Positions 23,481 through 49,706 of a stretch of 64,000 nt of DNA are shown piece by piece. The stretch is from a virus. Its lineage: Duplodnaviria > Heunggongvirae > Uroviricota > Caudoviricetes. The notes under the pieces are model-generated. The model was not told the origin of the DNA. It saw only the letters and a program-made list of their open reading frames with translations, and did not search any database. The stretch's first letter is position 1. Each line of letters opens with the position of its first letter. The stretch spans positions 159,745 through 223,744 of the IMG/VR virus record IMGVR_UViG_3300028591_000080; one strand, given 5' to 3'. Both the position numbers and the translations under genes were made by a program.

Positions 23481-23489
23481 AAAACTCTC

Positions 23490-23774
23490 CTAAGATTTTA
23501 TTCATGTTCTTTCATCATCAGCTTCTTCATAATCATAATCAGGATCGCGCCTAGGAGCGTTTTGTTCTTTAGGTGTATAAATTAATTCATTCTTTGTTTC
23601 GGACAAATAGGCGCCGTCTATATAAATAAGTTGATGAAATCTATTACGACTTAATCTTCATCTAATATTATTAAAAGCTTTTTGAGGAGAGTCTGCAGTC
23701 GTGCCAACGTTTACTCAAGCTATTTCTCTATCATCTTTATCAAAAACAGGTCCATTGTATGTATAAGCACTCAT
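23490..23774 (-). CDS. hypothetical protein, about 94 aa, with 3 in-frame TGA codons
   Basis: ATG with RBS; reading through TGA gives EIAWVNVG, NIRWRLS, ERTWIKS; ends at TAG. Confidence 0.45.
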
Positions 23775-23852
23775 ACTAAATCTCCATAATAATTAAATAA
23801 TCAATACAGATAATTTAGCAATTATAAAAAGAAAAGTAAGGATCAAATGTCC

Positions 23853-24893
23853 TTACTTTTTATCTCTTAATGTTTCAGCTAATTCCAATACAAGCTTTTC
23901 TGTCTTTTCCCAACCAAGACATGGATCTGTGATTGATTTACCATATACTCCACCGTCTGGCTTTTGACAACCATCTTCAATATAAGATTCAATCATTAGT
24001 CCTTTAACTAATTTCTTAATATCTGGATTGTGGTTCATACTATATAAAACTTGTTTAGCAATTCTGATTTGTTCTTCAAATTTCTTATTTGAATTAGCAT
24101 GATTACAATCTACGATACAAGCTGGATTTTTTAGTTCAGTTTGCTTATATAATTCATCTAATAATTCTAGATCTTCATAGTTGTAATTAGGTCTATTCTC
24201 ACCATGCTTGGTATTATAACCTCTTAAAATACTATGTGCATATTCATTACCTTTAGATTCGACTTCCCAATTTCTATAAATAAATGTATGAGGATGTTGA
24301 GCAGCTTTAATTCCATTAATCATTACTGATAGATTTCCGGATGTAGGATTTTTCATACCAACAGGAATATTTAAACCAGAAGCTACTAATCTATGTTCTT
24401 GGTTTTCAACTGATCTTGCACCGACAGCTACATAACTTAACAAATCATTTATATATCTATGGTTTGCTGGATATAATAATTCATCTGCAGTTGAGAAACC
24501 TGTTTCTTCTAAAACCTTCATATGTAATCGTCTTACAGCAATAATACCTTCAAGCATATCAGGTTTATCTGTAGGATTTGGTTGGTGTAATAGTCCTTTA
24601 TAACCATCACCTGTAGTTCTTGGTTTATTCGTATAAACTCTTGGAACTATAAATATTACATCTTTAACTTTTTCATAAAGCTTTCTTAATCTCTTACAAT
24701 AATCTAATACTGCGTCTTCTCTATCGGCAGAACAAGGACCTATAATTAATAATAATTTATTACTCTTACCACTAATAATATTTTTTACTTCGTTATCATT
24801 AGCTTCCTTTACTTTAACTAAATCTTCTCTTAATGGAAACATCTCTTTAATTTCCATTGGTATTGGAAGCTTACGTTTAAATTCCATATTCAT
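23853..24893 (-). CDS. 3-deoxy-7-phosphoheptulonate (DAHP) synthase, class I alpha (AroG-like)
   Basis: Collinear with E. coli AroG: LLLIIGPCS, KPRTT, GARSVENQEHR, CIVDCNHANS, GKSITDPCLGWE. Confidence 0.8.
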   Translation of the reverse strand: MNMEFKRKLPIPMEIKEMFPLREDLVKVKEANDNEVKNIISGKSNKLLLIIGPCSADREDAVLDYCKRLRKLYEKVKDVIFIVPRVYTNKPRTTGDGYKGLLHQPNPTDKPDMLEGIIAVRRLHMKVLEETGFSTADELLYPANHRYINDLLSYVAVGARSVENQEHRLVASGLNIPVGMKNPTSGNLSVMINGIKAAQHPHTFIYRNWEVESKGNEYAHSILRGYNTKHGENRPNYNYEDLELLDELYKQTELKNPACIVDCNHANSNKKFEEQIRIAKQVLYSMNHNPDIKKLVKGLMIESYIEDGCQKPDGGVYGKSITDPCLGWEKTEKLVLELAETLRDKK

Positions 24894-28609: not shown

Positions 28610-28855
28610 CTACTCTTCAACGGTATATGATTCATAACCTAAGTCACCTAAAAAACTACCAATAGTGTCTTCTAAAATCTTAGTTAATGCGGATAACTTA
28701 TGGTCATATCTATATGTGACAAGTGGTACTTTCTTTAAAGTAATCCAAACTTGTAGTGTGTGATTTCCTTTTTCAATATGTTTTACAAAATAATAAGTTT
28801 TATCTGTTTTTGAAGGTTCTACGCAGAAAAATCCTAATTTTTCAAAACGTTCCAT
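28610..28855 (-). CDS. hypothetical protein (81 aa)
   Basis: ORF. Confidence 0.4.
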   Translation of the reverse strand: MERFEKLGFFCVEPSKTDKTYYFVKHIEKGNHTLQVWITLKKVPLVTYRYDHKLSALTKILEDTIGSFLGDLGYESYTVEE

Positions 28856-29035
28856 TAATTTTTCTCCTCTACATTTTTTTCTAAGTATTCAAATATCTCT
28901 TCAATCTTTTCTGTTGGAGATACTTTATATAAATCTTCTCTATTATATTTTTCAATAATTTTATTTAATCTATTATAATTATTATTGCTCAAACCAGCTC
29001 TAGACATAAAATAAACAATCTCTAAAATATCCATA

Positions 29036-31213: not shown

Positions 31214-32785
31214 TTAGTCCTTCTTAGTTGTAGAAGGCTTCTTTGTTGTAGGTGATTCCTTAACTTCGAAAGCATCATTCTTTACTGAGTTAGAAATTAG
31301 CTTTCCACCTAAAGTACCTACCAATAATGACTTAATATCTAAGCCAGTTGCTTGTTCAAGACCAGCGAAGATTTGAGTACCGTTCTTAGTAATTTCTTCA
31401 TTAAGCTTTGCAGTATTGCCTTCACCATACATTGTAATATTACCAATATGAGACATAGCTTCAGCCATAGGCTTAGAGTATGCTTCAACAACCTTAGGTA
31501 ATACATCAGATTCTAGAATCATCTTTAATGTAGCAGCTTCACCATATTGCTTCATCGCATCAGCTTTCTTTAAGATAGCTTCAGCTTCAGCCTTACCTTT
31601 AGCTTCAATACCTTCAGCTTCAGCAAGTGCAGCTTGCTTCTTAGCTTCAGCTTCTGCAACCATTGCTTCCTTCTTAGCATTAGCTTCGATAATTTGAGCT
31701 TCAGCAGCTTGTTGACGAGCAGCTTTTTCTGCAGCAGCCTTAACCTTAGCCATTTCAGCTTGACGTTGTGCTTCTGCTAATTCAGCTTCAGCAGCCTTAG
31801 TTCTCTTGTAAAGATCCGCATCAGCAGCCATTTGTGCAGCATACTTTTCAGCATCAGCTTTCTTATTAACTTCAGCTTGTAATCTCTTTTCAGTTAATTC
31901 AACTTCTTGAATTCCTAATTGAACTTCTCTTTGACGCTTAGAAATCTCAGCATTAATTGTTGCAGTATTAATAATTTCTTGTTGCTTTTGTTGTTGAATC
32001 TTATAAGCAGCATCTGCATCAGCTCTTGCTGTATCAGACTTTTGCTTTAATGAAGCAGCTCTTAATTCATATTCAGTATTTTGCTGAATGATTGTTGTAT
32101 CAGACTTAACCTTAGCTTCATTTGCATCTTGTCTAGCTTGTGCTTGAGCAATGTTTACATCTCTATCAGCATTTGCTTTAGCAATAGCAGCATCCTTAGA
32201 GATTTGAGCGATGTTATCGATACCTAAGTTTTCAATAACACTATTGTCATCAGTAAAGTTTTGAATATTAAAGTTTACTACTTCGATACCAATTGCAGCC
32301 ATATCTGGAGTAACATTTTCCTTAACCTTATCAGCAATACCTTTACGATCTTGAACCATATCTCTAATCTTAGATGCACCAACGATTTCACGAATATTAC
32401 CTTCAAGTACTTGGATAACTTGATCTTCAATATCTTTCTTAGACTTATTTAATAATGATTCTGCAGCTCGTTGTAACATTTCTGGAGTAGAACCAATTTT
32501 AATATTTGCAACGGCATCTACATTAACATTAATGAATTCATTTGTAGGAACTGAATTTCTAGTCTTAATATCAATAGACATTAAAGATAATGATAACTTA
32601 TCAACTCTCTCAAAGAAAGGAATTCTAAAACCTGCCTTACCAACAAGTACACGTTGTCTACGAGGACCTGTGATAATAACAGCCGTATCTGTTGGAGCCT
32701 TAGTATATCCTGCTGCTAAGAATATAATTAATAAGAATAAAAGCGCTCCGGCGATACTTAAACCAATTATTAAACCTAAATTCAT
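31214..32785 (-). CDS. flotillin-like SPFH/band-7 membrane protein with long Ala/Glu/Lys coiled coil
   Basis: N-terminal TM helix, SPFH core (VIITGPRRQRVLVGKAGFRIPFFERV), then a roughly 200-aa AEAK-rich coiled coil. Confidence 0.65.
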   Translation of the reverse strand: MNLGLIIGLSIAGALLFLLIIFLAAGYTKAPTDTAVIITGPRRQRVLVGKAGFRIPFFERVDKLSLSLMSIDIKTRNSVPTNEFINVNVDAVANIKIGSTPEMLQRAAESLLNKSKKDIEDQVIQVLEGNIREIVGASKIRDMVQDRKGIADKVKENVTPDMAAIGIEVVNFNIQNFTDDNSVIENLGIDNIAQISKDAAIAKANADRDVNIAQAQARQDANEAKVKSDTTIIQQNTEYELRAASLKQKSDTARADADAAYKIQQQKQQEIINTATINAEISKRQREVQLGIQEVELTEKRLQAEVNKKADAEKYAAQMAADADLYKRTKAAEAELAEAQRQAEMAKVKAAAEKAARQQAAEAQIIEANAKKEAMVAEAEAKKQAALAEAEGIEAKGKAEAEAILKKADAMKQYGEAATLKMILESDVLPKVVEAYSKPMAEAMSHIGNITMYGEGNTAKLNEEITKNGTQIFAGLEQATGLDIKSLLVGTLGGKLISNSVKNDAFEVKESPTTKKPSTTKKD

Positions 32786-35213: not shown

Positions 35214-35660
35214 TTAATTTTCTTCATTTGCTTTTACCTCCACAAATATCTTAGAAATAACTTCCTTATGTAATTTGATATTTATATCATGCTTGCCGAA
35301 TGTTTTAATATTATCCATCATGATTTGCTTAGACTCAAGTCCTGGAACTATTTTAATTAATTCTGGCATTAAGTCTTTCTTAGTCACAGCTTTATTAGCT
35401 GAACCATCTGGCATTGGCTTTCTATAGAATGTAAAAACCTTACCTTTTAATTGATCATCTTGCTCCCAACACATTTGTAAGAAATCATTAGCTTCATCTT
35501 GTGCTCTATCAATATCTCTTTGTCTCTTAGCAAGATTTAATTCTGTAGCAGGTTCTGCTTTACCTTGAGTGATTAAGAAATTAGCATAGCCATTTGCAAA
35601 TTCCTTTATATCTAATGCTTTACCTTTACCTTTGACATCTTGTGTTAAAATTACTTTCAT
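35214..35660 (-). CDS. hypothetical protein (148 aa)
   Basis: ORF. Confidence 0.45.
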
Positions 35661-35691: not shown

Positions 35692-36072
35692 TTATTCTAA
35701 TGCAGATCTAATATCTGAATAAACTTCTTGTAAATGTAATACAGTATTTTTTATTCTATTAGCCATAAACATTTCAAACTTTTCGATAATTTCATCATTA
35801 GTTAATGGCTTAAGAGAGTAAATGCTATATTCATCTGTGGTAAATTCACAACACTTTCCAAGGTCCTCACTATTAAAAGCATAGTCATAAAAATTATCAT
35901 CTTCTTTATAATATCTTATATAATAGTTTATTTCATCAGCAATTGGATGCTTGTCATCGCCATAGAAATAATGCTTAGATGAATATAATGTATAGTCTCT
36001 TTTGTGTTTCTTAAGATTATATTCATAAGATAATGTATAAGAATAAACTAATTTTTTAATCATAGGTATCAC
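35692..36072 (-). CDS. hypothetical protein (126 aa)
   Basis: ORF. Confidence 0.45.
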   Translation of the reverse strand: MIPMIKKLVYSYTLSYEYNLKKHKRDYTLYSSKHYFYGDDKHPIADEINYYIRYYKEDDNFYDYAFNSEDLGKCCEFTTDEYSIYSLKPLTNDEIIEKFEMFMANRIKNTVLHLQEVYSDIRSALE

Positions 36073-36078
36073 CTCAAA

Positions 36079-36678
36079 TTAATGTGGGTTATAACCGTAG
36101 TCTATAACAGTACAAACTGGCACATAAATTACAGTATAAATCTCAGTAGAGTTTGCATCTTTTCTTTCCTCTACTCTTGGACTTGTATCACTTTCTTTTA
36201 GATATACATTTGAATTAATTTTAACTTTTGTTAAAGAAAATAAATCTTTTGAATTCTTTATATAAAAGTAATAATAATTATCAGTGCTAACACTTCCATT
36301 ACCTAATAAGAAATGACCATTGACTTCTGAATTTAAATCTAATGAATAAATATGGTCATATTGCACTTCTACTATCTCAGATTTATACCATTCTGGATAA
36401 TGTTTGTTATTATCTATTGTAGCAATTAGTGCCCAAATTGGAAGTAATATAAGTCCACTAAGAGCAAGAGTACCAAATAAACAAGGTTTTAAATCATCGT
36501 CATCGTCAATTAAACCAAATATTCCAGCAGCTAATGTACCTAAGATACCTAAACCGATAAATACTATACATATAATCCATAGTGCTACAAAAGCAGTACT
36601 AGGTTCTTGGTAAGTTGGTATTGATAAAATTGTATTTAACATATTAATAATCTTCCTTTCTTTTATCTGCAGTTTCAA
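36079..36678 (-). CDS. integral membrane protein (at least 3 TM helices)
   Basis: Hydrophobic stretches VALWIICIVFIGLGILGTLAAGIFGLI and LALSGLILLPIWALIATI. Confidence 0.5.
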   Translation of the reverse strand: MKLQIKERKIINMLNTILSIPTYQEPSTAFVALWIICIVFIGLGILGTLAAGIFGLIDDDDDLKPCLFGTLALSGLILLPIWALIATIDNNKHYPEWYKSEIVEVQYDHIYSLDLNSEVNGHFLLGNGSVSTDNYYYFYIKNSKDLFSLTKVKINSNVYLKESDTSPRVEERKDANSTEIYTVIYVPVCTVIDYGYNPH

Positions 36679-36850
36679 TTACATCAACATAATACTTTTG
36701 ACCATCTGCAATTTGATCTTTCGATAGTTCTTTATTTAACTTATTTGCGGCTCTTTCAGCTCTTATTGGGTCTAAGTATATAGCCTCAATATAACCACTA
36801 ACAAAATCAAAATCCCAAACTAAATCACTTTTAACAGCATATAATTTCAT
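36644..36850 (-). CDS. hypothetical protein (68 aa)
   Basis: ORF. Confidence 0.4.
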   Translation of the reverse strand: MKLYAVKSDLVWDFDFVSGYIEAIYLDPIRAERAANKLNKELSKDQIADGQKYYVDVIETADKRKEDY

Positions 36851-36862
36851 ATGTTATTCCTC

Positions 36863-37234
36863 CTACTTTAAATAATTTCTTTTCTTAAACCATTTTCTTA
36901 ATGTATAGAAGTCTCCTTCAATTTCACCATTACTTCTATCGTATTTATTTCCGCTACGATATGTATAAGTTAATTTGTAAATATGGTCACCAGTTATTTC
37001 TAATTTGAATTTTCTATTCTTACTTTCAAATGTAACATAACTTAATTCTTCCATAACTACCTTCTTAAATTTTGTATCATCGCCAAGATAATTCCACCAG
37101 CCAACTACTTGATTTTCTCTATTAGATAAACCATTGCCAGTTAATCTTTCCATTTCTTCTTTATCATTAATTATCTCTTTCATATGATCAATGATATTTT
37201 CTAAACTTAAATCTAAATTAAATAAACCAAACAT
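36863..37234 (-). CDS. hypothetical protein (123 aa)
   Basis: ORF. Confidence 0.45.
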   Translation of the reverse strand: MFGLFNLDLSLENIIDHMKEIINDKEEMERLTGNGLSNRENQVVGWWNYLGDDTKFKKVVMEELSYVTFESKNRKFKLEITGDHIYKLTYTYRSGNKYDRSNGEIEGDFYTLRKWFKKRNYLK

Positions 37235-37237
37235 ATT

Positions 37238-37564
37238 TTAGTCCTCCTCTAAAGCATATAACTTATAACCATCATCAGTTTGCGCTATCTTGAATCTTCT
37301 ATTATACTCTGGTACATTATCAAATTCTAAATCACAATTAGTAGCAAAATCACAAGTTCGATTATATACATTTTCACAACAAATTAGTCTTGCGTCTTCT
37401 ATTGGACCGAGATTAGCTGAGGCTTTTCTAATAGGATTTTTATATTGTTTGCCTTTTTTACTTACAATATAATCTGTACTTCCTGTTTCAAACCAACACA
37501 CAAGTAATCTTCCACCACAAACTGGACATATAAAATCTAATTGTTTCATAATTAGTTCCTCCAA
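37238..37564 (-). CDS. zinc-ribbon protein (108 aa)
   Basis: CPVCGG ... CCENVYNRTCDFATNC cysteine pairs. Confidence 0.45.
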   Translation of the reverse strand: MEELIMKQLDFICPVCGGRLLVCWFETGSTDYIVSKKGKQYKNPIRKASANLGPIEDARLICCENVYNRTCDFATNCDLEFDNVPEYNRRFKIAQTDDGYKLYALEED

Positions 37565-37654
37565 TTATTAATAATCATATTGACTATCATCTTTACATTA
37601 TATTATACAACAAAAAAGAACGCTTTTGGCGTCCTTTAAGAGAAAATATGAAAA

Positions 37655-38218
37655 TTATTCAAAATATTTCTTAACAATAATTTGGCAGTCTCTCATAACT
37701 GTTAATGCGGCTTCATGAGCTTCAGGAGATAAACCTGCACATAAGTCATCATAAACATATACATCGATTTCTGGAAGTAAAGACTTAAGAATTAATGCAT
37801 TACTAATTACACAAATATCTGTACAAGTTCCTACAAGATTAATTCTCTTTACATCTGCAAGACCGTAATAGAAGTGTTCGTAGATAACTTCTTTCCAACG
37901 ATCCATGCTCATACCAAACGAAGGCTTAGTAACTAAGAAGCCATAACGAGAAGCTTCTAATAATTCCTTAACTACCTTATGTCCATCAGTTCCTTGAATA
38001 CAATGAGGAATAGGTAAGAACTTTCCTTCTCTTGAAGCCATATATCCTTGTTGGTGAGTATCTTGTGTAAATACTACAACTTCACCTCTTGCTTCAGATT
38101 CTTTAATAAATTGTACCATTGGTTTAACGATTGCTTGTGCAGCTGGATTAGCTAAGCTACCAGTTACAAAATCATTTTGCATATCAATGATAATTGTTAA
38201 TGTCTTATTATTTTCCAT
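37655..38218 (-). CDS. pncA: nicotinamidase (isochorismatase family, PncA)
   Basis: TLTIIIDMQNDF, catalytic Cys in VGTCTDICV; likely start MENNKT directly after the pncB stop (the track ORF has a spurious N-terminal extension). Confidence 0.7.
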   Translation of the reverse strand: MENNKTLTIIIDMQNDFVTGSLANPAAQAIVKPMVQFIKESEARGEVVVFTQDTHQQGYMASREGKFLPIPHCIQGTDGHKVVKELLEASRYGFLVTKPSFGMSMDRWKEVIYEHFYYGLADVKRINLVGTCTDICVISNALILKSLLPEIDVYVYDDLCAGLSPEAHEAALTVMRDCQIIVKKYFE

Positions 38219-38220
38219 AA

Positions 38221-39474
38221 TTAAGCCTCCTCGTTTTCTAATCTCCAGTTGATTGCATCCTTTAGATGAACTGTATATGCTGGATCTGGACATAATGTTT
38301 TACCCTTATCATCAGATACCTTTGCAACTGGCTTACCATTTACATATTGTAATTTCATAACAATATTTAATGGTCTGACAGTAGAGTCATTTGTAATGAA
38401 GGTACCAATACCCGCAGCAAATTTCATACGACCATCTACATAGTTATAGATTTCTAAACACTTATCAAAGTCATAAGAGTTAGATACTAAGAATGTTTTA
38501 GTCTTTGGATCAACACCTTCAGCTTCATAAGCCTTAACAAAGTTATCAATATGTTCGTGGTCATCGCCAGAGTCTGTTCTAACACCCATAAATTGTCTCA
38601 TGAATAATCTCTTGAATCCTCTTAAGAATAACTTAGTTGTTAATGTATCTGTTAATGCAATACCTAAGTCACCTTCAAATGTTTCTAGCCATTCTTGTAA
38701 TGCAGCTTCTACTGAATATGCTACTTGAATTCCTTTAACACCTTGGAATAGCATTGTATATTCATGAGCGAATGTTCCGATAGGAGTAACACCATATTTC
38801 ATAGCTAAATAGATATTTGAAGTACCACTAAAGATTCCAGATTCACAACCATTAGCTACGATAAAATCTTGAAGCTCTGGTAAGTTTCTACGTCTTGTAC
38901 CAAATTCTGCGATCTTACCTTTAAGTGGCTCATACTTTCCACCTTTTTCAAAACCAGCAGCCTTTGCAGCCCAACGCTTAATTCCTTCATTATAAATATT
39001 ATCATAAGTATCATTAAATAAATTCCATACATAAGATACAATTGATAAAGTATAGATTTCAAATTGAGATACAATATATACTGGACCTTCAGCTTCGATA
39101 TGTAAATCTCCATTTTCATCTAATTCAAATCTAGTTAAATATCTTAAATCTAATGTAAGGTGTCTTAATAATTCTAATGCACCTTTATGTTTTCTTAAGT
39201 GACGAATATTCTTTAAGTAATCAAGCTCAGCATCTGTCCAGTGTAATGTTGCTAAGTGTTCAAACTGTCTCTTTATTTCTCTGAACATTTCTGGAGTGAA
39301 CTTTGCATCCTTTGTTCTATTAACAAAGATATACTTTGTGATATCATTTGCATGATGTTCTAATTGAGGAATAAACATATATACTTTATAAGCATCCTCT
39401 TCAGATAAATAATGGATAGCATAACCATCTTTGTAATTAATAGGGCACTTTAACCCAGCTTCTGTAATTTTCAT
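38221..39474 (-). CDS. pncB: nicotinate phosphoribosyltransferase (PncB)
   Basis: Collinear with E. coli PncB: EFGTRRR, GTSN, TPIGTFAHEY, LGIALTD, RTDSGD, KPLNIVMKL, NGKPVAKVSDDKGKTLC. Confidence 0.85.
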   Translation of the reverse strand: MKITEAGLKCPINYKDGYAIHYLSEEDAYKVYMFIPQLEHHANDITKYIFVNRTKDAKFTPEMFREIKRQFEHLATLHWTDAELDYLKNIRHLRKHKGALELLRHLTLDLRYLTRFELDENGDLHIEAEGPVYIVSQFEIYTLSIVSYVWNLFNDTYDNIYNEGIKRWAAKAAGFEKGGKYEPLKGKIAEFGTRRRNLPELQDFIVANGCESGIFSGTSNIYLAMKYGVTPIGTFAHEYTMLFQGVKGIQVAYSVEAALQEWLETFEGDLGIALTDTLTTKLFLRGFKRLFMRQFMGVRTDSGDDHEHIDNFVKAYEAEGVDPKTKTFLVSNSYDFDKCLEIYNYVDGRMKFAAGIGTFITNDSTVRPLNIVMKLQYVNGKPVAKVSDDKGKTLCPDPAYTVHLKDAINWRLENEEA

Positions 39475-39564
39475 ATTTTAATTCTCCTTAATTATTTATT
39501 TAATATAGTCATCTTGACTATTATATTATACAATAAAATTTAGGAAATTTTATTCTTAATTTCC

Positions 39565-40080
39565 TTAAATCTTAATTAATTCTTGAACATTGCCTTTTAA
39601 ATTAAATATTATATAATTCTCATTGTCCCAGCAATTAGTAATATGGACAATCGAATCCCAGTCTGCTTCGCTTGGATTAGGAAATTCCATTCTATGCCAA
39701 TCTTTAATTAATTTATCTTCAGGCATTGTTCTATATCTATTTTTATTACCTTCTAAACATTTTTCGAGTGGAGCTGTGACCCAAAGTAAATGATGCTTGA
39801 AAGTTGGAAACCATTCAATTAATTGCCTACGTTGAGCAACAGTTAATGCATTAGTAGTTAATAATACATCATGGTCTTCCAATTCTACTTCATGTAGAAC
39901 TTTAAATAATAAATGCCAAACCTCAAAACTATTTTTATGGATTCGCTCATCACCATTTATTAATTTATAAAAATCATCAACGTCATAAAAAACTATATTA
40001 GGATTTTTACCGATTATTCTTTTACTTAATACAGTTTTTCCACCACCTGATATTCCACATACTAAATAGAAATTAGCCAT
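39565..40080 (-). CDS. P-loop nucleotide/nucleoside kinase-like protein
   Basis: Walker A GISGGGKT at the N-terminus; 171 aa; substrate unknown (nicotinamide-riboside or polynucleotide kinase are options). Confidence 0.45.
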   Translation of the reverse strand: MANFYLVCGISGGGKTVLSKRIIGKNPNIVFYDVDDFYKLINGDERIHKNSFEVWHLLFKVLHEVELEDHDVLLTTNALTVAQRRQLIEWFPTFKHHLLWVTAPLEKCLEGNKNRYRTMPEDKLIKDWHRMEFPNPSEADWDSIVHITNCWDNENYIIFNLKGNVQELIKI

Positions 40081-40505
40081 TATAACACCTCAAAATAGTT
40101 TAAAAACTTAGTTATATCTAAATAATATTCATGACCTTCTTTTATATCCTCATCAGAATATTTTAAAACTTTAATTGCATTATCAGAAAGTCTTGCATCA
40201 AAATTTTTATGAATCCAATCATATACATAGGTATTTGCATTATTCCAAATATAAACTAATTGCTTTGGAAGGCCATACTTTTTAAATAGTTCAGTCACTA
40301 AATATTTCATAGTCAATCTTCCATAACCTTGATGCTGATAATTCTTATTAGCATACCATTGAGAGATTGTCCACTTATTATTTGTGTCAACGCTTATTGT
40401 GCACTTACAAATATATTCATTTAAAAATTCTTCTGTAAGTAAACTTTCATAAACAAAAGTTAACTTAGAATTATTTATTAATTTGTAAGTTAACACAATA
40501 ACCAC
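40080..40505 (-). CDS. GNAT-family N-acetyltransferase
   Basis: QHQGYGRL acetyl-CoA-binding motif. Confidence 0.5.
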   Translation of the reverse strand: MVIVLTYKLINNSKLTFVYESLLTEEFLNEYICKCTISVDTNNKWTISQWYANKNYQHQGYGRLTMKYLVTELFKKYGLPKQLVYIWNNANTYVYDWIHKNFDARLSDNAIKVLKYSDEDIKEGHEYYLDITKFLNYFEVL

Positions 40506-41225
40506 CTACTTTAATCTATACACTTTACTAGGTCTCTTAGAAAATTCTGTACTTTCTAATCCATCAATAACTTCTAATCGATCACCATATCTTTTCAAGA
40601 TGTCTCTTCTAAAATTAGCTAAGCCGATTTTCTTATTTAAAATAGCTTCATATACTAATTTTAATTCATATAATGTAAATGATTTTTTTGATTTTAAAAA
40701 TTCAAAAGCAATATCTGTATAATCTAATTTTCCTTGTAATCTTTTTACTGTATCTTCAATGATTTGTTTATGATCAAAAGCCATAGAACAATTAAATGTA
40801 AATGGACATACCCATCCACTATTAGTTTCAGCTTTAGATTCTTCTGGTAAATAACACATAGCATTTACTGGTAGGATAGAATAATAAACTACTGATATAA
40901 CTCTTGTTCTTGGATCTCTATCTACTGCACCATAAGTATATAATTGTTCAATATGAATTTTATCTGGATCTAAATTTGGATAAGTTATTTTATCTTTTAA
41001 TTTAAATCTAACATTATCCTCTAAAGAAAGATTAGGCTGAACAAATCCTCCAGGAATTTGTAGCATGTCTTTAAATGGATAATCTTTTCTTTTAGTTACT
41101 AAAACTTCTAATTTATAAGAATTACCTAATTGATGCATACTTAAGATTACAACGTCTGTTGCAATAGATGGTCTATCCTTAAATTCATTAACATTATAAT
41201 CTTTTAAAAAGTCTTGTTCAGTCAT
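40506..41225 (-). CDS. Nudix-fold protein with C-terminal winged helix, NrtR-like (ADP-ribose-responsive regulator family)
   Basis: Nudix-like N-domain (GGFV), C-terminal blocks MAFDHKQII, FTLYELKLVYEAIL, NFRRDI that I recall as NrtR signatures. Confidence 0.45.
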   Translation of the reverse strand: MTEQDFLKDYNVNEFKDRPSIATDVVILSMHQLGNSYKLEVLVTKRKDYPFKDMLQIPGGFVQPNLSLEDNVRFKLKDKITYPNLDPDKIHIEQLYTYGAVDRDPRTRVISVVYYSILPVNAMCYLPEESKAETNSGWVCPFTFNCSMAFDHKQIIEDTVKRLQGKLDYTDIAFEFLKSKKSFTLYELKLVYEAILNKKIGLANFRRDILKRYGDRLEVIDGLESTEFSKRPSKVYRLK

Positions 41226-41235
41226 AACCTAACTC

Positions 41236-42375
41236 CTAACCTACTATACTTAAAATACTTAAATAACCTAACAATCCTGAAGCTGTTAAATAGATTTGAT
41301 TATTTTTAATTAAAGAATTTAGTTCGTCTAAAGAATAAACTTTAATCTTAATATCTTCTGTTGCTTCTAAATGTTGTTTACCGATTGAAGATAGTTTTAC
41401 AACAGCCATATAGTTTGCTTCATCACACATACCAGCACACATTGATAAAGGATAGTTTTGAAGTAATGTAATCTTTTCAACCTTACCACCAACTTCTTCA
41501 TAAACTTCTCTTTCAATAGCTTTATTAACATCTTCATTATTTTCAATTAATCCAGCAACGAATGAATTTACATATCTTCCTAAAGCACTACGGAATTCTT
41601 CAATCATAACAACTTTAATTTCCATAGTCTCTGGATCTACATAATAAGTAAATGCTTCAATAGCTGTTGGCTTAACCATATCATGATTGATTGCTAAATC
41701 CTTCATATTATTTCTTGATACAAAGAAATAATCTCTAGGCTGATTATTAGTCATATAGTGAGCCGTATAGAACTTTAAAAATTTCTTATCTAAATTTAAA
41801 TCTACAGATAATAATGTTTGATTTTCTGATTTAACAATAGGTTTAATTTTTAAAGTTTTTATCCAATTAAATGCTCTAATAATTGTATCAGCATGCTTTT
41901 CTGGATTTGAATTAGTTTCAACAAAGTCTTGACCTTTCATAGCTAACTTAGATTGAATAACTACATCTTGTTCTCTACTATAACCTTGTTCTACACTAAC
42001 AGTAATTCTATTCATATAATCATTTGGAAATCTTACTTCCATCTTTGCTAAATTTCTTCCTAATTCATACATACAGATAGGTTGAACGGATTTAGGACTA
42101 TTTGCAAAATACATTGAGAAAATATCCATTTGTTCTAACATATTAAATTCCCAAGTTATTTGTTCATTAGAAGCATTAGGATCATGAATAGGGAAGTTTT
42201 TACGTCTTGGATTGAATAATACTAATCCAGTTAAATCAACGTCAACGTTCTCTAAATAATTAATTACTTCATCTTGCCATTCACCACAATCTGTGATACC
42301 TCCAGCTAAGAAACAAGTAATTTCTCCTGGCTTCTTTTCATATTTTTCTACAGCTGTAATTACTTTTATATTCAT
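41236..42375 (-). CDS. Nudix hydrolase (ADP-ribose pyrophosphatase-like) fused to an N-terminal Rossmann-like (nucleoside deoxyribosyltransferase/LOG-like) domain
   Basis: Complete Nudix box AGLIENNEDVNKAIEREVYEEVGG; N-terminal FLAGGITDCGEW resembles YLAGP-type Rossmann folds. Confidence 0.55.
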   Translation of the reverse strand: MNIKVITAVEKYEKKPGEITCFLAGGITDCGEWQDEVINYLENVDVDLTGLVLFNPRRKNFPIHDPNASNEQITWEFNMLEQMDIFSMYFANSPKSVQPICMYELGRNLAKMEVRFPNDYMNRITVSVEQGYSREQDVVIQSKLAMKGQDFVETNSNPEKHADTIIRAFNWIKTLKIKPIVKSENQTLLSVDLNLDKKFLKFYTAHYMTNNQPRDYFFVSRNNMKDLAINHDMVKPTAIEAFTYYVDPETMEIKVVMIEEFRSALGRYVNSFVAGLIENNEDVNKAIEREVYEEVGGKVEKITLLQNYPLSMCAGMCDEANYMAVVKLSSIGKQHLEATEDIKIKVYSLDELNSLIKNNQIYLTASGLLGYLSILSIVG

Positions 42376-42376
42376 A

Positions 42377-43360
42377 TTAATTTTTACTCCTCTTTAATTC
42401 TGATATTTCTAAAGCTTGTTCAACAACTAAAGCTTTAAGTCTTTCAACTTCATGTTCTAATGCATGGTACTTTTCTGCTGGAACGTCTGCCTCTTTTACT
42501 GCACTTATCTTCATACAAAGACTACTATCATCAACTTTATCTGCAATGCGCTTAGAATCTCCAATTGATGTTAATGAATCACTACCAGCAATTTGAACAA
42601 GACTGCCATAAGGAAGACCTTCATCTAAAAGATAATTTAAACCTTTTTTAATTTCACAATCTGATTTATTAAATAGTTCTGGAACTATTCCATGCTTACT
42701 CATCCACTCTCTAGCAGCTTTAGGACCAGCTAAAATCTTTCGATCTAATTTAAATCTAGGTTCATAATCTGATGGTGGTAATGCTTCTCTCCAGCAAGTA
42801 TTTAAAATTCTAGCTATCTCAACACCACTTGAATTTGATTTAGATTCTACTAAAATAAAATCACGTTTATTTTTAAGTCTATCTTCTTCAAGATTTAATA
42901 ATTCAGCTTCTCTAGCTGGAACCATAATAAATCTCTTAGACCAATCATCATATTTCTTTTTATTTAAATATTCAAAGTATACACATAAATAATTCTTTTC
43001 AATAGGATCAATTACCTCAATACCAGTACGAGCTATATACTGATAGTTTTGTTTTTCAATATACCATAAACCACCTTGAGCTCTTGGATTTAACCACTTA
43101 CTTCCATCATCATTATAACAACAGAACTTACGAGTAATGTGGATTCTAATACTATTTGATACTTTATCATTAAATGTATATTTATAGCTTCCATTTAGTT
43201 CAGAAATACCATAAGTATCATCTTCGAATATCTCAGCTTCAAAAATAGTTGATGGATCTAAATTAGGAAAGTATGTTAAAAAACCTCTAATTCTTTTTGC
43301 TTTAATTAAAATTGGAAATCTAAATTTCATATTGTTCACCTCATATATAATAATATACAA
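42377..43360 (-). CDS. hypothetical protein (327 aa)
   Basis: ORF inside the NAD island; no motif recognised. Confidence 0.5.
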   Translation of the reverse strand: MYIIIYEVNNMKFRFPILIKAKRIRGFLTYFPNLDPSTIFEAEIFEDDTYGISELNGSYKYTFNDKVSNSIRIHITRKFCCYNDDGSKWLNPRAQGGLWYIEKQNYQYIARTGIEVIDPIEKNYLCVYFEYLNKKKYDDWSKRFIMVPAREAELLNLEEDRLKNKRDFILVESKSNSSGVEIARILNTCWREALPPSDYEPRFKLDRKILAGPKAAREWMSKHGIVPELFNKSDCEIKKGLNYLLDEGLPYGSLVQIAGSDSLTSIGDSKRIADKVDDSSLCMKISAVKEADVPAEKYHALEHEVERLKALVVEQALEISELKRSKN

Positions 43361-43368
43361 TATGACTA

Positions 43369-43851
43369 TTAATAAATCTCATTTGTTAATAAATAACTTA
43401 TTAAATAATCATAAGCCATTTGTGCTGCATACTCTCTAACTTTTTCTCTATCATCATTAAATATTTGATATTCAAATCCACCAGCTTGAGTCATATTATT
43501 ATATTTTTTAATTAATAAACTAACATAGAATTTTCCAGCTGGAGTTCCACGATTAGAACCAGGTCCAGCTACACCAGAAATTGCCACTGCGATATTAGCA
43601 CCAGTTAATTCTAAAAGACCATCACACATTTGACGTGTTGTTTGACTATTATAAGGTCCATATCTAACTAAGAAATCTGAATCAACATTTAATACTTTAG
43701 ATTTAATTTCATCTGTATAAGATGTGACAGAACCTAGATAAACAGAACTTATTCCAGGTTCTTCACAAATCTTTGCAGATAACTTTCCACCAGTTAAAGA
43801 TTCAGCTACAGCTAACTTAAGGTTATATTTTTCCAACAATTCTTTTAGCAT
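43369..43851 (-). CDS. CinA C-terminal domain protein (PncC-type NMN deamidase family)
   Basis: LAVAESLTGGKLSAKI matches the CinA_C signature. Confidence 0.6.
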   Translation of the reverse strand: MLKELLEKYNLKLAVAESLTGGKLSAKICEEPGISSVYLGSVTSYTDEIKSKVLNVDSDFLVRYGPYNSQTTRQMCDGLLELTGANIAVAISGVAGPGSNRGTPAGKFYVSLLIKKYNNMTQAGGFEYQIFNDDREKVREYAAQMAYDYLISYLLTNEIY

Positions 43852-44648
43852 TAAATCTTCACCTCTAAATCATCAGGTTCATACTTAGGCATTAGTACTA
43901 ACTTATGTAAATTAGCTCTGTGCATTCTATCAATCTTTTCTTTATGTTCTAGATTTTCAATAACACCAGTTCGAATATAAGTATCTAATTCATCATAAGT
44001 AAATCCTAACTTCTCTTCATCAGACTTACCACTCATTCCATCGCTAGGAACTTTTTCAATTAAATCCTTTGGTAAACCTAATTCATAACCTAATTCTTTA
44101 ACTTCATGAACAGTTAAATTTGCAAGTGGTGAAAAGTCTCCTGCACTATCTCCATACTTAGTTGAATAACCAACCCAGTCCTCAGATAAATTACAAGTAT
44201 TGGCTACTCTTGCATTACCAAGAATTGCTGCAACTCCGTATAAAGTTGTCATACGAATTCTTGCTGGAGTATTAGTTTCATATACATCATTAAACTTTGT
44301 TGCATAATTAGTTATATAACTTGAGCAAGTTCTATTTATTCTATGTCTAGACTTAAATCCTTCAAATATTGATTGTCTTAACATTAAAGTAGCATAACCA
44401 ATATTTATACAAGTATAATCAATACCTAAATGCTTAACTAATTCTAATGATTTATCAATATCCTTTTGTTCACCATCTGGCATTAATACGCCAAATACTT
44501 TATCCTTACCAAGTGCTTCCACACATAAAGCAGCACAAACTGAACTATCTTTGCCACCACTAATTCCAATAACAACTGTACAATCACCTACAGTCTTTCT
44601 AACCCATTCAACTAAATCTTCTTTACATTTCTTTGCATTAAATTCCAT
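43851..44648 (-). CDS. nadE: NH3-dependent NAD+ synthetase
   Basis: PP-loop GISGGKDSSV; 265 aa, NadE-sized. Confidence 0.8.
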   Translation of the reverse strand: MEFNAKKCKEDLVEWVRKTVGDCTVVIGISGGKDSSVCAALCVEALGKDKVFGVLMPDGEQKDIDKSLELVKHLGIDYTCINIGYATLMLRQSIFEGFKSRHRINRTCSSYITNYATKFNDVYETNTPARIRMTTLYGVAAILGNARVANTCNLSEDWVGYSTKYGDSAGDFSPLANLTVHEVKELGYELGLPKDLIEKVPSDGMSGKSDEEKLGFTYDELDTYIRTGVIENLEHKEKIDRMHRANLHKLVLMPKYEPDDLEVKI

Positions 44649-44678: not shown

Positions 44679-45227
44679 TTATACCTTTCTAAATATACTA
44701 TCGTCTGCTGGTTCAAAATCTGGTTGCCAACTTCTTTTAGTAACTGTCCATGAATAATTAGTTATAGTTGGAATAGTTTTTTCTTCAATTAAATTATCAA
44801 AAACATATAACCTATTATCTCTAGAACTAAATCTTGAGTAATCTTTCATTTTATAAAAAGCTTCTACATCTGCTTTAGTTTTAATCGATATATTATAACC
44901 ATCAATATCATTACTATAAGTTATATAATTTCTACGGCAAAAATCATATAATTCTAAAGCATTTGTATATACATAAACCTTTTTAATGTTAGGATATCTC
45001 TTTTTATAATAAGATGTAATTTTTTCAGGATTAGTAAACTCAAAAGGTTCACCACCAGTTAGGCAAAGCACTTCGCATTGTTTTAACTCTTCATCTGTAA
45101 CATAAGGAATATCATCTAAACTATATTGCTTATTACAACAATGAGGACAATTTCTTAAACACAAACTTGTTACCATTAAGTGGATAACTCTTTTAGTTTT
45201 ATTAGTATATTCATTTAACTTACTCAT
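44679..45227 (-). CDS. small radical SAM protein (QueE/NrdG-like activase)
   Basis: CLRNCPHC (C-x3-C-x2-C) near the N-terminus and GGEP motif. Confidence 0.5.
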   Translation of the reverse strand: MSKLNEYTNKTKRVIHLMVTSLCLRNCPHCCNKQYSLDDIPYVTDEELKQCEVLCLTGGEPFEFTNPEKITSYYKKRYPNIKKVYVYTNALELYDFCRRNYITYSNDIDGYNISIKTKADVEAFYKMKDYSRFSSRDNRLYVFDNLIEEKTIPTITNYSWTVTKRSWQPDFEPADDSIFRKV

Positions 45228-45318
45228 GATTTATTCTCCTTAGTCATTTATTTTAGCAAATTATAAATAGTCATTTTGACTATTATATTATACAATAAAA
45301 AATAGAATTTTTCGAATT

Positions 45319-46624: not shown

Positions 46625-47435
46625 CTTAATTTCCAAGTTTACTTAGTAATGAATCTAAAACTATTTCTTTAATTAATGGCATTAGTTCCATCATATAGTC
46701 ATCTTCTATTTTATCATTAGCTCATTTAATTTCTAAGTGTCCACCACATTCTTTTGGACATGGTGCATCATGCATTATAATAGCTACAATTACTTTAACC
46801 ATTGTCATATCTTTAAATTTAAGAAATGAGCGTGGTGTTTTTTCATATAATTCTATTTCATCAATGTCGCCATTTGAACATCCGATAGTAAGAGCTACTT
46901 CATCTTTATTTCTTGCTGCATAGATAGCATTTTCTACAGCACCTGGATGAGCTTGAATTGGATAAGTTAATCCTAAAATTCGAGTAATTTCTGCTGCGTA
47001 TTTTAGTCAACATTCTCCATGACCATCATCAGCTCTATAATAATCTTCTATCTCTTTTGTTGGAAATACTTTTTCACCGTGTTCTTCATCTGCTCAAATG
47101 TTTAGACGTTTATCATTTAACATTTCAACATCTACTAAATAATGACAATATTCATGTGCAAAAGTATTTTCAAATAATTCTTCCAATCCGTTCTTTAATA
47201 CATATTGACTAACTTCTATTTGAATCATAGCCTCATGATGTAATACGTCTCTACCAAATAAAGTACTACCTAAAGTATTGGTTGAATCATATCCTTTAAG
47301 TGATACTCCTAATAAACTAGGATTTGGTTTTCAATCTGGATGAGCTTTAGATATTTTAAATAAAACTTGATTAGCAATAAACATTGCTAAATCTTCTTCC
47401 ATATAATCATTTTTATCTTCAAATAAATTAACCAT
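46625..47435 (-). CDS. HExxH zinc-metallopeptidase-like protein, about 269 aa, with 4 in-frame TGA codons
   Basis: ATG with AAGGAG RBS 9 nt upstream; FAHEYCHYLVD HExxH motif; all four Trp positions (HPDWKPN, LNIWADE, GECWLKY, EIKWAND) are TGA; ends at TAA; invisible to the standard-code ORF track. Confidence 0.55.
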
Positions 47436-47475
47436 AAGTAGAAACTCCTTACAGTATAATTTAGCAATCTAAATA

Positions 47476-48765
47476 TTAACTTGTATGTTCGACATTATAT
47501 CTTGTAGTTTGATCACTTGCAAATTTAATTAAATCTTCCTTATTATTTTTTAAGATTCCACTATAAACTTCAATTAATGTCATCTCTAATGCAGTTCTAA
47601 TTTGTTTTCCTTTATAACCTAAAGCAATCATATCATTACCATCAACTGCTAATTGATTTAAAGAATAACAACCGCTTTCAAATACTAAATTAATAACTTC
47701 TGTTGAATTAAAATAATATCTGTTAATAGCGTCAATAAATACAAAAGCATCTTGAATTTCAAGTAATTTTCTTACTAGCCATTCAGCATCTTTATTAGAA
47801 TAACCATATGTATCAACTAATCTATGACCTAAAGCTCCAACACTGTCTGAGTCATCAAGATTAACCTTTCTAACTTCTCTACTTAATACTTTAATTAATT
47901 TTGTATCTTTTGTTGAAAATTTTAAACGAGTTAAAATAGCTTCAGTTTGTTCAGGAGTTAAGTATGAACAAATTCCAATAAAGTTATCAACATAATGATC
48001 AGTCACAAGCTTAAATAATTGCTTATTTAAGTACTTAAATTCAGGAATAATATGATAAATAATAGCACCAGGCATAAATCCTTGCATTAAATCACCAACA
48101 GTCTCATAATCAAAGATTCTAATAATCTCATCATGGATTCTTTCTGCAGAAATACTATCTAATAAATCTTCTTGGAAAAACATTGCGTACATAGTTCCAT
48201 TCTCAATATGGAAATTATACTTGCATGCAAATCTAAGACCACGCAAGATTCTTAGAGCATCCTCTTTAAATCTTTCTTTAGGGTCTCCAACTGCACGAAC
48301 AATACCTTCTTTTAGGTCCTTTAATCCACCAAATGGGTCAATTACAGTATCACCGCTGTTATATGCCATCGCGTTGATAGTAAAGTCACGTCTAGCTAAA
48401 TCTTTTACAATATCTTTAGTAAATTCAACAGATTCAGGGTGTCTATTATCTTTATATTCGCCATCAATACGATATGTAGTGATTTCAATATTCTCTTCAT
48501 TGTATCTAACTGTTACAGTTCCGTGCTTTTCTCCATTGTTATTAATGATAGGATAATCTTTAAATACTTCTTTAATTTCATCAGGAGTCGCATTAGTAGT
48601 TAAGTCAATATCTTTAATTGAATGACCTAATAAAAGGTCCCTTACCGCTCCGCCGACAATATAAGCTTCATATCCAGCAGTTTCAAGTTTATTAAAAACA
48701 AATTGTACAATATCTTTTTGCTTAGCTGTAAGTAAATCAAATAAATTATTTGACACTTTAATCAC
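47476..48765 (-). CDS. cca: tRNA nucleotidyltransferase (CCA-adding enzyme)
   Basis: Pol-beta-type head YIVGGAVRDLLLG ... DIDL ... RDFTINAMAY; 429 aa. Confidence 0.75.
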   Translation of the reverse strand: MIKVSNNLFDLLTAKQKDIVQFVFNKLETAGYEAYIVGGAVRDLLLGHSIKDIDLTTNATPDEIKEVFKDYPIINNNGEKHGTVTVRYNEENIEITTYRIDGEYKDNRHPESVEFTKDIVKDLARRDFTINAMAYNSGDTVIDPFGGLKDLKEGIVRAVGDPKERFKEDALRILRGLRFACKYNFHIENGTMYAMFFQEDLLDSISAERIHDEIIRIFDYETVGDLMQGFMPGAIIYHIIPEFKYLNKQLFKLVTDHYVDNFIGICSYLTPEQTEAILTRLKFSTKDTKLIKVLSREVRKVNLDDSDSVGALGHRLVDTYGYSNKDAEWLVRKLLEIQDAFVFIDAINRYYFNSTEVINLVFESGCYSLNQLAVDGNDMIALGYKGKQIRTALEMTLIEVYSGILKNNKEDLIKFASDQTTRYNVEHTS

Positions 48766-49546
48766 CTTCTTTTAAATAATATTTTTTAAAGCGTAATAAA
48801 CTTTCATTTGTAAAAGTTATTTGTCCTGCTTTATATAACTCAACTATAAAAGGACGAGTTAACTGTTTAAAATCTTTGTTTGAAAATAAAACATATTCTA
48901 GATTATTATTTGAACAGTAGGTTTCAGCCGCTTGCTTTTTTAATAAAACAACCTCTGAACTTAACTCTCTAAAATCTTTAATCTCATATAAATATTTATT
49001 ATCGACCAAAAAGTCTGGTCTATATTGATGGATAGTTCCACTGGTATCACTATAATAAATGGTCATAGTTTCTGCTGATTTAATTGTATGATTTTCATTT
49101 AACATTTTATAGATAAATGATAATTCAACAAGAGACCTAAATAGATATCCAGAATACCAACCAGCATAACCACGACCATTAACTGGGTTATCTTCAGTAA
49201 ATTTATGTGGATTATTTATTCCTTTTGCAAAATAATGATGATTAGCTTTTCAATCATCACTCTTAAAACGTTCTGTCAAAGACTTACCTAATTGTTTCTT
49301 ATTATATTCTGCCCAAGTATAAGTACGTATACCTTTTTGATAATCTTCATGTTGACGACAGCCTCTACATAGGTCTCTATCATCTCTTTTTTTAAAATTT
49401 AATTGTTGTGAATGATAATTTATCTTATAAATTTTACCGCATACATCACATCTAACTTCGATAATATCACCAGTACTAAATCCTACCCTTCCTTTTTTAA
49501 ATCCATGTGCACCTGCTTGTAATATTCTTGGTTTACTAAGTATCAT
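48758..49546 (-). CDS. zinc-finger plus PD-(D/E)xK nuclease-domain protein (homing-endonuclease-like), about 262 aa, with one in-frame TGA
   Basis: Track ORFs 49250..49546 and 48758..49105 share a frame, separated only by TGA; N-terminal CDVCGK...CRGCRQ, C-terminal YRPDFLVDNKYLYEIKDF (PD...EIK). Confidence 0.55.
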
Positions 49547-49706
49547 AAATAATCTCCTTATTTTTTATTCATTTAATTTAGCAAACAAAACGCAGCCACC
49601 AACAAAATAGGTTACTCTATATAAATAATACAATAATTCCTAATATAAGTGTAACACTTGTTATAACTAATTTAACAATATCATTAATTAATTTTAATTT
49701 CATAAG

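Follow-up and report, generated by a model that had tools for sequence, protein, structure and literature searches.

An NrtR-like regulator and palindromic candidate operators over an NAD salvage island of a probable jumbo phage

NrtR of Shewanella oneidensis (SoNrtR; PDB 3GZ5/3GZ6) is a repressor of prs-nadV that responds to ADP-ribose (ADPR). Among phages, restoration of nicotinamide adenine dinucleotide (NAD) is known from NARP1 (Adps and Namat), NARP2 (Nampt and Nmnat) and NARP3 (PnuC and a NadR-like protein), which have been read as counter-defence to NADase immunity, and from RyDEP, a glycosidase with an RyR domain that is encoded in a NARP1 operon; the publications consulted on NARP1-3 and RyDEP describe no dedicated metabolite-sensing repressor. 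A survey of viral NAD and ADP-ribose metabolism from 2022 names NadV, NadM and NadR as the NAD enzymes of phages, NrtR appearing there only in connection with host systems (PMC9503650), and our literature search found neither a phage-encoded NrtR nor a phage PncA/PncB/NadE pathway described. Here we analyse 64,000 nucleotides (the window) of the virus record IMGVR_UViG_3300028591_000080, in which an nrtR-like gene and an adjacent gene for a PF15891-Nudix fusion lie within an island of NAD salvage genes. What appears to be new is the setting, a known type of regulator carried by a phage and accompanied by operators mapped to salvage genes, and the deamidated PncA/PncB/NadE/PncC route in phages is itself missing from the survey. 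An ADPR switch formed by NrtR and its operators over NAD salvage, together with an ADPR-degrading fusion protein, is in our view the best explanation of the locus, and we hold it to be moderately probable.

A preliminary description of this DNA had placed two open reading frames (ORFs) of 239 and 379 amino acids (aa) on the minus strand, and both are present exactly as given. It had read the first as NrtR-like, with a Nudix-like fold and a C-terminal winged helix, and this assignment was borne out.

40506-41225, minus strand: nrtR-like gene, encoding an effector domain that is Nudix-like but catalytically dead, with a winged-helix DNA-binding domain at the C-terminus (PF21906, PF00293, PDB 3gz5, 164 homologues)
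40512-40685, minus strand: NrtR winged-helix domain, residues 181-238, with the recognition motif ANFRRDI (PF21906, 5.7e-11)
40980-41051, minus strand: degenerate Nudix box of NrtR, residues 59-82, GGFVQPNLSLEDNVRFKLKDKITY (column-wise comparison with the intact box of P0090)

The nrtR-like ORF runs from ATG to TAG and its translation contains the peptides MAFDHKQII, FTLYELKLVYEAIL and NFRRDI that had been quoted for it. In Pfam, the winged-helix model NrtR_WHD (PF21906) was matched with 42.8 bits against a cut-off of 27, with the NFRR motif conserved, and NUDIX (PF00293) with 23.7 bits against a cut-off of 21.1. When the protein was searched against PDB with phmmer, Shewanella NrtR (3gz5) aligned with it from end to end (E=2.4e-20), and further matches were obtained to BtAraR (1.7e-18), to NadQ over the winged-helix part only, and to the effector-domain-only entry 3gz8. 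The best NCBIfam match, over the full length, was the NrtR model NF050029, 'ADPR responsive transcriptional repressor' (103.4 bits, E=1.3e-29). We take the 239-aa protein to be a member of the NrtR family that stands outside the curated NF050029 equivalog group.

When compared with the intact homologue P0090, all catalytic Nudix positions of the phage NrtR are replaced (E by L, RE by FK, EE by DK and G by T), and ligand binding rather than hydrolysis is therefore to be expected of the degenerate box. A perturbed Nudix signature is a typical, not an obligatory, mark of the family; the phage protein carries it, and SoNrtR and the NrtR of Synechocystis likewise have perturbed signatures without hydrolysis (PMC2330246). 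The residues through which SoNrtR contacts ADPR are Tyr10, Phe15, Arg41, Asn43, Lys76, Arg98 and an Arg/His pair at the terminal ribose (PMC4666351). In an alignment of the phage relatives, bacterial homologues and SoNrtR, these contacts map in order to Y10, F15, R46, D48, K79, R106, R103 and H152 of the phage protein, so that seven of the eight are kept, among them the two that contact adenine and the Arg and His at the terminal ribose. Within the phage clade Y10, R46, R103, R106 and H152 are invariant, K79 is nearly so, and position 15 is always aromatic (F or Y).

The eighth contact leaves room for a different effector acting through the same regulator and operators. Such an effector could be NAD or nicotinate adenine dinucleotide (NaAD) as a co-repressor, as in Corynebacterium NdnR, or one of 2'/3' cyclic ADPR (2'/3'cADPR), His-ADPR, ADPR-1''-phosphate and the ADPR>p of KptA-type RNA repair. 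Family members with different effectors exist, the Asn43 that contacts the alpha-phosphate in SoNrtR is Asp48 here, KptA is found within the equivalent islands of locus L004 and of Bacillus phage G, and RNA-repair enzymes are encoded in the window. Against this stand the seven retained contacts and the observation that the two NAD-regulating NrtRs tested in vitro respond to ADPR (PMC2330246), and we regard another effector as rather unlikely.

Two further observations concern the nrtR gene. The phage NrtR has a nearly invariant lysine, K166, at the junction of the Nudix and winged-helix domains; a mycobacterial NrtR requires acetylation of its conserved junction lysine K134 (PMC6800001). A gene for a GNAT acetyltransferase (40080-40505, minus strand) directly follows nrtR in frame, one TAG separating the two, and is without counterpart in the island of locus L003. 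That the two genes might form one read-through protein was considered and rejected, the separating stop being TAG and the recoded codon of this genome TGA.

The preliminary description had suggested that the intergenic regions of the island be searched for NrtR-box-like palindromes. The search was positive and gave three candidate operators, O1 to O3.

45267-45283: operator O1, ATAGTCA-TTT-TGACTAT, a perfect palindrome sharing 2 nucleotides with the 3' end of promoter P1
39505-39521: operator O2, ATAGTCA-TCT-TGACTAT, a perfect palindrome that overlaps promoter P2, upstream of pncB-pncA
37571-37587: operator O3, with one mismatch, 9 nucleotides downstream of promoter P3, after a terminator-like hairpin and upstream of a small-gene operon
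45282-45295, minus strand: promoter P1 (TTGTATAATATAAT, extended -10 type), heading the radical-SAM-like gene, nadE, pncC, an ORFan, the fusion gene, nrtR, the GNAT gene and a P-loop kinase gene
39520-39533: promoter P2, ahead of pncB-pncA
37597-37610: promoter P3, ahead of the small-gene operon that starts at 37238-37564
37615-37637, minus strand: hairpin resembling an intrinsic terminator, closing the pncB-pncA unit just before P3
43353-43369: weak site with two mismatches and of uncertain significance, made of a good half-site ATAGTCA and the promoter-like TTGTATATTATTAT (motif at 43347-43369), before the ORFan gene; L003 has the same layout

The box is a 17-bp palindrome, ATAGTCA-N3-TGACTAT, that lies on or just after the -10 element of three phage promoters, and it includes GT-N7-AC, the conserved core of NrtR-family boxes (PMC2330246). 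In the window it occurs three times with up to one mismatch against 0.03 expected, and five times with up to two mismatches against 0.62 expected. The three good boxes all lie inside the island and abut the promoter-like motif TTGTATAATATAAT, which itself has 33 matches with up to two mismatches against 8.6 expected, mainly upstream of minus-strand genes. A generic scan of the window for sigma-70 promoters gave 54 against 64 expected and is uninformative in DNA so rich in AT, and a scan of IMG/VR for the exact promoter and operator pattern returned two matches only, both unrelated-looking.

Since the palindromes sit directly against a frequent promoter motif, in DNA with a very high AT content, they might be promoter or terminator architecture, or the site of another factor, with no relation to the NrtR-like protein. 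We consider this highly improbable, given that other exact copies of the promoter (7843, 15710 and 63007) lack a box, that the box holds the published NrtR core, and that it recurs at loci chosen by NrtR alone and in one NrtR subfamily only. For this last comparison two sets of loci were fetched by NrtR homology alone, 80 from metagenomes (770 kb) and 80 from genomes (623 kb). The metagenome set carried 25 boxes, in 14 of its loci, and the genome set 17; of its 16 loci from Lachnospiraceae 15 have the box, and of its 64 from other taxa none does.

Among the phage loci, L003, whose NrtR is 53% identical, has three perfect boxes in the same three places with differing spacers. O1 is kept in L003, L013 and L014, O2 in L003, L013, L014 and L015, and the equivalent of O3 is perfect in L003, L014 and L019. 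In L019 (NrtR 37% identical) the three boxes stand ahead of a DUF5662 gene, of pncB-pncA-nadE, and of a long unit whose last genes are an NAD kinase gene, CoaE-like and NadD-like genes, and nrtR, and in L006/L007 (NrtR 45% identical, without an NAD island) one box precedes a two-gene unit ending in nrtR. In L006 a GGDEF-domain gene also lies upstream of nrtR, and a NADAR-domain gene (11580-11948) some 3 kb downstream. On the bacterial side, the -35 and -10 elements of nrtR-pncB in Acetatifactor (L093) flank the box, and a two-residue insertion and a Tyr in the winged-helix domain are common to the phage and Lachnospiraceae NrtRs and absent from NrtRs without the box. Because the palindrome recurs with this NrtR subfamily in both phage and Lachnospiraceae loci, we read it as the cognate operator of the subfamily, and its positions on the phage promoters would be typical of repression.

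The sharing of this operator by phages and Lachnospiraceae hints at the host range of the phage and at cross-talk with a host regulon. It could even be that the phage NrtR is mainly directed at the host, taking over a host NrtR regulon (nrtR-pncB and others), the phage operators being secondary or serving to recruit the host repressor. The identical box at 15 of 16 Lachnospiraceae nrtR loci, Acetatifactor nrtR-pncB included, and the shared winged-helix features would fit this. However, the three perfect or near-perfect boxes lie on the phage's own promoters and are kept in phages whose NrtRs are 37-53% identical, which points to a phage-internal regulon; we therefore hold a mainly host-directed role to be unlikely, the two roles being nonetheless compatible with each other.

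That an NAD island exists here had been asserted in the preliminary description and is confirmed by Pfam and NCBIfam matches of the flanking genes NadE, PncC, PncB and PncA. The order of transcription on the minus strand is a weak radical-SAM-like gene, NadE, PncC, a 317/327-aa ORFan, the fusion, NrtR, GNAT, an AAA_33 P-loop kinase, PncB and PncA.

43851-44648, minus strand: nadE, NAD synthetase, P1/O1 unit (PF02540, 6e-50; TIGR00552 above cut-off)
43369-43851, minus strand: pncC, CinA-type deamidase of nicotinamide mononucleotide (NMN), P1/O1 unit (PF02464, 2e-36; TIGR00199 above cut-off)
38221-39474, minus strand: pncB, nicotinate phosphoribosyltransferase, first gene behind P2/O2 (TIGR01514, 296.9 bits against a cut-off of 269.55)
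37655-38293, minus strand: pncA-like nicotinamidase/isochorismatase (PF00857, 1e-22)

On the strength of the L002 gene call and of the sequence after the pncB stop, pncA probably starts at an ATG at about 38218, just after that stop. NadD, NAD kinase and DUF5662 were sought across the window, including in translations with TGA read as Trp, and none was found. In related islands a NadD-like gene sits beside nrtR, namely in L004 (7478-8011), L019 (9364-10008) and phage G, and L004 has NadD-NrtR-PncA-Nudix next to NadE, PncC and PncB.

The unit behind the O3 promoter consists of small genes (35692-37564, minus strand). Its 199-aa (36079-36678) and 126-aa (35692-36072) proteins share 82% and 76% identity with the products of genes that follow the third L019 operator, and since these counterparts occupy that position, both are putatively conserved members of the predicted regulon. 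Two transmembrane helices can be read by eye from the sequence of the 199-aa protein. Two other genes are also recorded here. The first gene of the O1 unit (44679-45227, minus strand) is short, has a CxxxCxxC motif and resembles radical-SAM proteins only weakly (19.9 bits, under the cut-off); in L003 and L004, too, the island is headed by a radical-SAM-like gene. The ORFan at 42377-43360 (minus strand; 317/327 aa) always follows pncC in the phage clade, has nine clade-restricted homologous clusters (36-93% identity), and gave no Pfam, NCBIfam or PHROG match.

The neighbour of nrtR, for which a complete Nudix box and an N-terminal Rossmann domain like that of nucleoside deoxyribosyltransferases and LOG proteins had been claimed, encodes a fusion protein of two parts.

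41236-42375, minus strand: fusion gene, PF15891 domain and ADPR-pyrophosphatase-type Nudix (Pfam; AlphaFold2 model)
41851-42375, minus strand: N-terminal PF15891 ('DrHyd'-type Rossmannoid) domain, residues 1-175
41236-41835, minus strand: C-terminal Nudix module of ADP-sugar/ADPR pyrophosphatase type, residues about 181-379
41485-41553, minus strand: intact Nudix box, residues 275-297, GLIENNEDVNKAIEREVYEEVGG, G-x5-E-x7-REVYEEVG, fitting GX5EX7REUXEEXGU

The fusion ORF runs over 379 aa from ATG to TAG, and the complete box claimed for it is there at residues 275-297. NUDIX was matched with 32.4 bits against the Pfam cut-off of 21.1, and phmmer gave matches of the Nudix half to ADPRases in PDB. 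The top 50 Foldseek hits of this half comprised only NUDT5, NudF, NudE, YffH and a Bdellovibrio NDP-sugar hydrolase, with E between 6e-10 and 1e-7 over about 200 columns, from a model with a modest predicted local distance difference test (pLDDT) score. It is moreover 56% identical to the stand-alone Nudix protein beside PncA in the L004 island, which we read as its orthologue. In view of the intact box, the ADPRase matches in fold and sequence, and this orthologue, the Nudix half is most likely the ADPR/ADP-sugar pyrophosphatase of the island and would convert ADPR to AMP and ribose-5-phosphate. The full-length architecture was found in 6 protein clusters only, all of one phage clade.

For the N-terminal domain the claim held in part. 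Nuc_deoxyri_tr2 (PF15891) was matched above its cut-off, with 46.9 bits against 30 over residues 21-111; the domain does not belong to the LOG/SLOG family, the ThsA sensor domain included, either by sequence or by closest fold. The analogy that had been drawn with the SLOG sensors of Thoeris thus stands as a resemblance of fold class, and the nearest structures are 4MCJ, YtoQ, TIR domains and deoxyribosyltransferases. The model of residues 1-175 has a pLDDT of 93.6, and homologues of the domain match PF15891 and nothing else. Invariant positions are FLAGGI (22-27), W75-E76, Q98-P-I, E104-L-G106, R134 and D137. The E-x-G where the helix following strand 3 begins presumably resembles the nucleophile motif of deoxyribosyltransferases. 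Given the invariant Glu in this motif, the domain is probably an N- or O-glycosidase acting on the same ADPR-containing metabolite or on the AMP product.

The literature search returned nothing on PF15891, and YtoQ is without a known function in the literature. The family comprises 2774 clusters at 50% identity, mostly stand-alone and phage-borne. In the Tunturiibacter phage Tunturi_5, gp225 (L174, 5001-8789) is a 1262-aa polyvalent protein that adjoins the portal gene and combines PF15891 (16-115) with an ART-PolyVal ADP-ribosyltransferase (207-380), an independent link of the family to NAD/ADPR chemistry, and a similar fold is found within a Klosneuvirus protein named 'Nudix hydrolase'. Rare though they are, the fusions of PF15891 to Nudix and ADP-ribosyltransferase domains suggest a role in that chemistry.

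The size of the family and its mostly stand-alone occurrence, the restriction of the fusion to 6 clusters of one clade, and the L001 homologue outside any NAD island would also fit a nucleotide-pool enzyme that has nothing to do with NAD, such as an N-ribohydrolase of NMPs or dNMPs like DNPH1/Rcl or MilB, or a base-exchange transferase, the fusion then being a recent accident of gene order. This is a possibility that we would take seriously while not expecting it to hold, for the fusion is kept at 60-100% identity over several contigs, one of them without the island, as would be expected of a stable functional unit, and fusions or co-folds with ADP-ribosyltransferase and Nudix domains recur independently. 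A more specialised proposal makes the fusion a counter-signalling enzyme, in which ADPR would be set free by a PF15891 glycosidase that opens 2'/3'cADPR, cADPR or His-ADPR, and would then be destroyed by the Nudix half, in parallel with RyDEP. The fold class is common to the TIR enzymes that make these bonds, the invariant Glu is retained, RyDEP provides a precedent within a phage NAD operon (PMC13232231), gp225 with its ADP-ribosyltransferase is apparently an injected protein encoded beside a portal gene, and stand-alone PF15891 copies lie in accessory regions of many phages. We nevertheless find this doubtful, as co-occurrence with Thoeris-related genes was not seen and the GDSL, pentapeptide and Ras-like fusion partners of the family are not suggestive of ADPR.

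Returning to the switch that we prefer, its working may be set out as follows. A dimer of NrtR at O1, O2 and O3 would repress its own eight-gene unit, pncB-pncA and the downstream small-protein unit. Cleavage of NAD, whether by NADase defences or in NAD-consuming reactions of the phage, would yield nicotinamide and ADPR, and ADPR would bind the Nudix-like domain, whereupon NrtR would leave the DNA and the deamidated salvage route would be expressed. PncA would then convert nicotinamide to nicotinate, PncB nicotinate to nicotinate mononucleotide (NaMN), and NadE NaAD to NAD, while PncC would bring NMN into the route; NadD and Prs, neither of which is encoded in the window, presumably come from the host. 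The Nudix half of the fusion would split ADPR into AMP and ribose-5-phosphate, the carbon being recycled towards phosphoribosyl pyrophosphate (PRPP) for PncB, and in removing the inducer would provide negative feedback, while the PF15891 domain would probably break a glycosidic bond, either of this metabolite or of one next to it. Should the host belong to the Lachnospiraceae, whose nrtR loci carry this box, an NrtR of the subfamily in the host could hold the island off as early as phage entry. The ADPR-sensing switch that had been put forward in the preliminary description is well supported, and the operators have strengthened it. What can be read directly from the DNA are the operator sites, the loss of the Nudix box and the retention of the ligand residues; repression, the effector and both enzyme activities are what we infer. 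If such a circuit operates, a phage could read out NAD cleavage and answer it transcriptionally by way of a metabolite-sensing repressor.

A number of points weigh against this explanation. Binding by NrtR, repression and the response to a ligand are all inferences from sequence. The 239-aa protein reaches 103.4 bits where the equivalog cut-off of NF050029 is 400, Asp48 replaces the alpha-phosphate contact Asn43 of SoNrtR, although in a column that is variable, and other effectors are used within the family, NAD by Corynebacterium NdnR and arabinose by BtAraR (PMC4666351). As the window holds neither a NaMN/NMN adenylyltransferase nor a PRPP synthetase, the encoded salvage route has gaps that host enzymes, or one that has escaped recognition, would have to close. 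L004 gave no ATAGTCA-type box, its island promoter lying past the end of the locus, and a quick palindrome scan found no matching box in the phage G island. With regard to the fusion, its NCBIfam matches to NudE (the best) and to NudF/ADPR diphosphatase are all below cut-off, the AlphaFold2 confidence is modest in the Nudix half, and the gene is not tied to the island, a 60%-identical homologue in L001 having no NAD genes within 10 kb and a DUF5662 gene taking its place in L003. Three stand-alone PF15891 homologues sit among anonymous small phage genes only, and the fusion partners among the best 150 PF15891 representatives form a mixed set with no relation to NAD (GDSL, pentapeptide, Ras-like, DUF1653 and tandem copies). 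Finally, a repressor that is encoded in the operon it represses would be absent when infection begins, and the circuit therefore needs time, or a host NrtR, to act as a switch.

A bolder version of the switch is that the virus encodes a sensor of immune activation, a captured host-type NrtR with its operator, through which a product of NADase or TIR activity (ADPR, or cyclic or conjugated ADPR) would induce a counter-defence regulon of salvage and of two-step signal destruction by the PF15891-Nudix protein. We regard this as a long shot. Were it true, the fusion would be the second enzyme class after RyDEP to degrade Thoeris-type signals, and the regulon the first phage counter-defence to be induced by the defence's own metabolite.

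The window has 28% G+C and practically every gene on the minus strand. Its genes resemble those of phages (ligases for RNA and DNA, a CCA-adding enzyme, a PHA02142 OB-fold, GP88 and numerous small ORFans), and metagenome contigs of 230-245 kb encode identical or near-identical proteins, for which reasons it is probably part of a jumbo phage. A near-identity DNA search with the island against the phage collection gave no match, and no tRNA genes were found in the window. Unusual minus-strand cargo elsewhere in the window includes a ribosomal protein L9 homologue, DAHP synthase, an SPFH/flotillin-like protein and CCA-adding tRNA nucleotidyltransferase. Several apparent intergenic gaps on the minus strand become genes once TGA is read as Trp.

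35214-35660, 23853-24893, 31214-32785 and 47476-48765, minus strand: this cargo group
46626-47468, 21927-22997, 22998-23489, 23490-23792, 48758-49564 and 28610-28924, minus strand: genes with TGA read as Trp

Four in-frame TGAs occur in the SprT-like gene at 46626-47468, and one of them falls exactly on the Trp (GHGECWLKY) of its L003 homologue; a GIY-YIG-like and a TnsA-like gene likewise contain TGA read as Trp. Most genes of the window, those of the entire NAD island included, are without TGA, and the island genes end in TAA or TAG.

Set beside the known systems, the phage NrtR shares with that of Shewanella the full-length two-domain architecture, the degenerate Nudix box, seven of eight ADPR contacts and a palindromic GT-N7-AC operator before NAD salvage genes. 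It differs in having only about 34% identity, another box sequence, targets of the PncA/PncB/NadE route in place of prs-nadV and Asp for Asn43, and in that its gene lies in an operon apparently controlled by its own product. The Lachnospiraceae NrtRs (e.g. Acetatifactor, L093) are the nearest cellular homologues (33-38% identity), with the same operator, the same winged-helix insertion and control of pncB. In contrast to the phage protein, however, with its 23.7 bits to Pfam Nudix, the two of them that were scanned reach 65-76 bits; their box is flanked by the -35 and -10 elements of a sigma-70 promoter, and they are chromosomal regulators of housekeeping NAD homeostasis.

With NARP1-3 the island has phage-encoded NAD restoration in common, the route here being a Preiss-Handler-type salvage via nicotinate (PncA, PncB, NadE and PncC). 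RyDEP, like the fusion, is an accessory enzyme within a phage NAD operon, and processes ADPR-type molecules and feeds salvage; its fold is unrelated to that of the fusion, and its activity on 2'/3'cADPR has been demonstrated whereas that of the fusion is predicted. The C-terminal ~200 residues of the fusion carry an intact Nudix box and are predicted to have the two-part ADPRase fold, as in NudF, NUDT5, NudE and the Nudix half of NadM-Nudix. The fusion scores below the family cut-offs, however, and the usual Pro of the downstream S-P-G motif is replaced (C-A-G), while the partner domain is PF15891, a large uncharacterised phage family of about 2800 clusters at 50% identity, and not an adenylyltransferase.

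The closest parallel in a cultured phage is the 497-kb Bacillus phage G (NC_023719: 200123-207372, L173), in which the NrtR-like gp273 is followed by PncA (gp275), PncB (gp277), KptA (gp280), NadD (gp281) and NadE (gp283). As in the present island, an NrtR-like gene (30% identity) heads a deamidated salvage island in a jumbo phage; in contrast, NadD and KptA are present and the PF15891-Nudix fusion is not, and gp273 is annotated only as a MutT/NUDIX hydrolase. The same module has thus gone unrecognised in the annotation of a cultivable phage, which makes experiments feasible.

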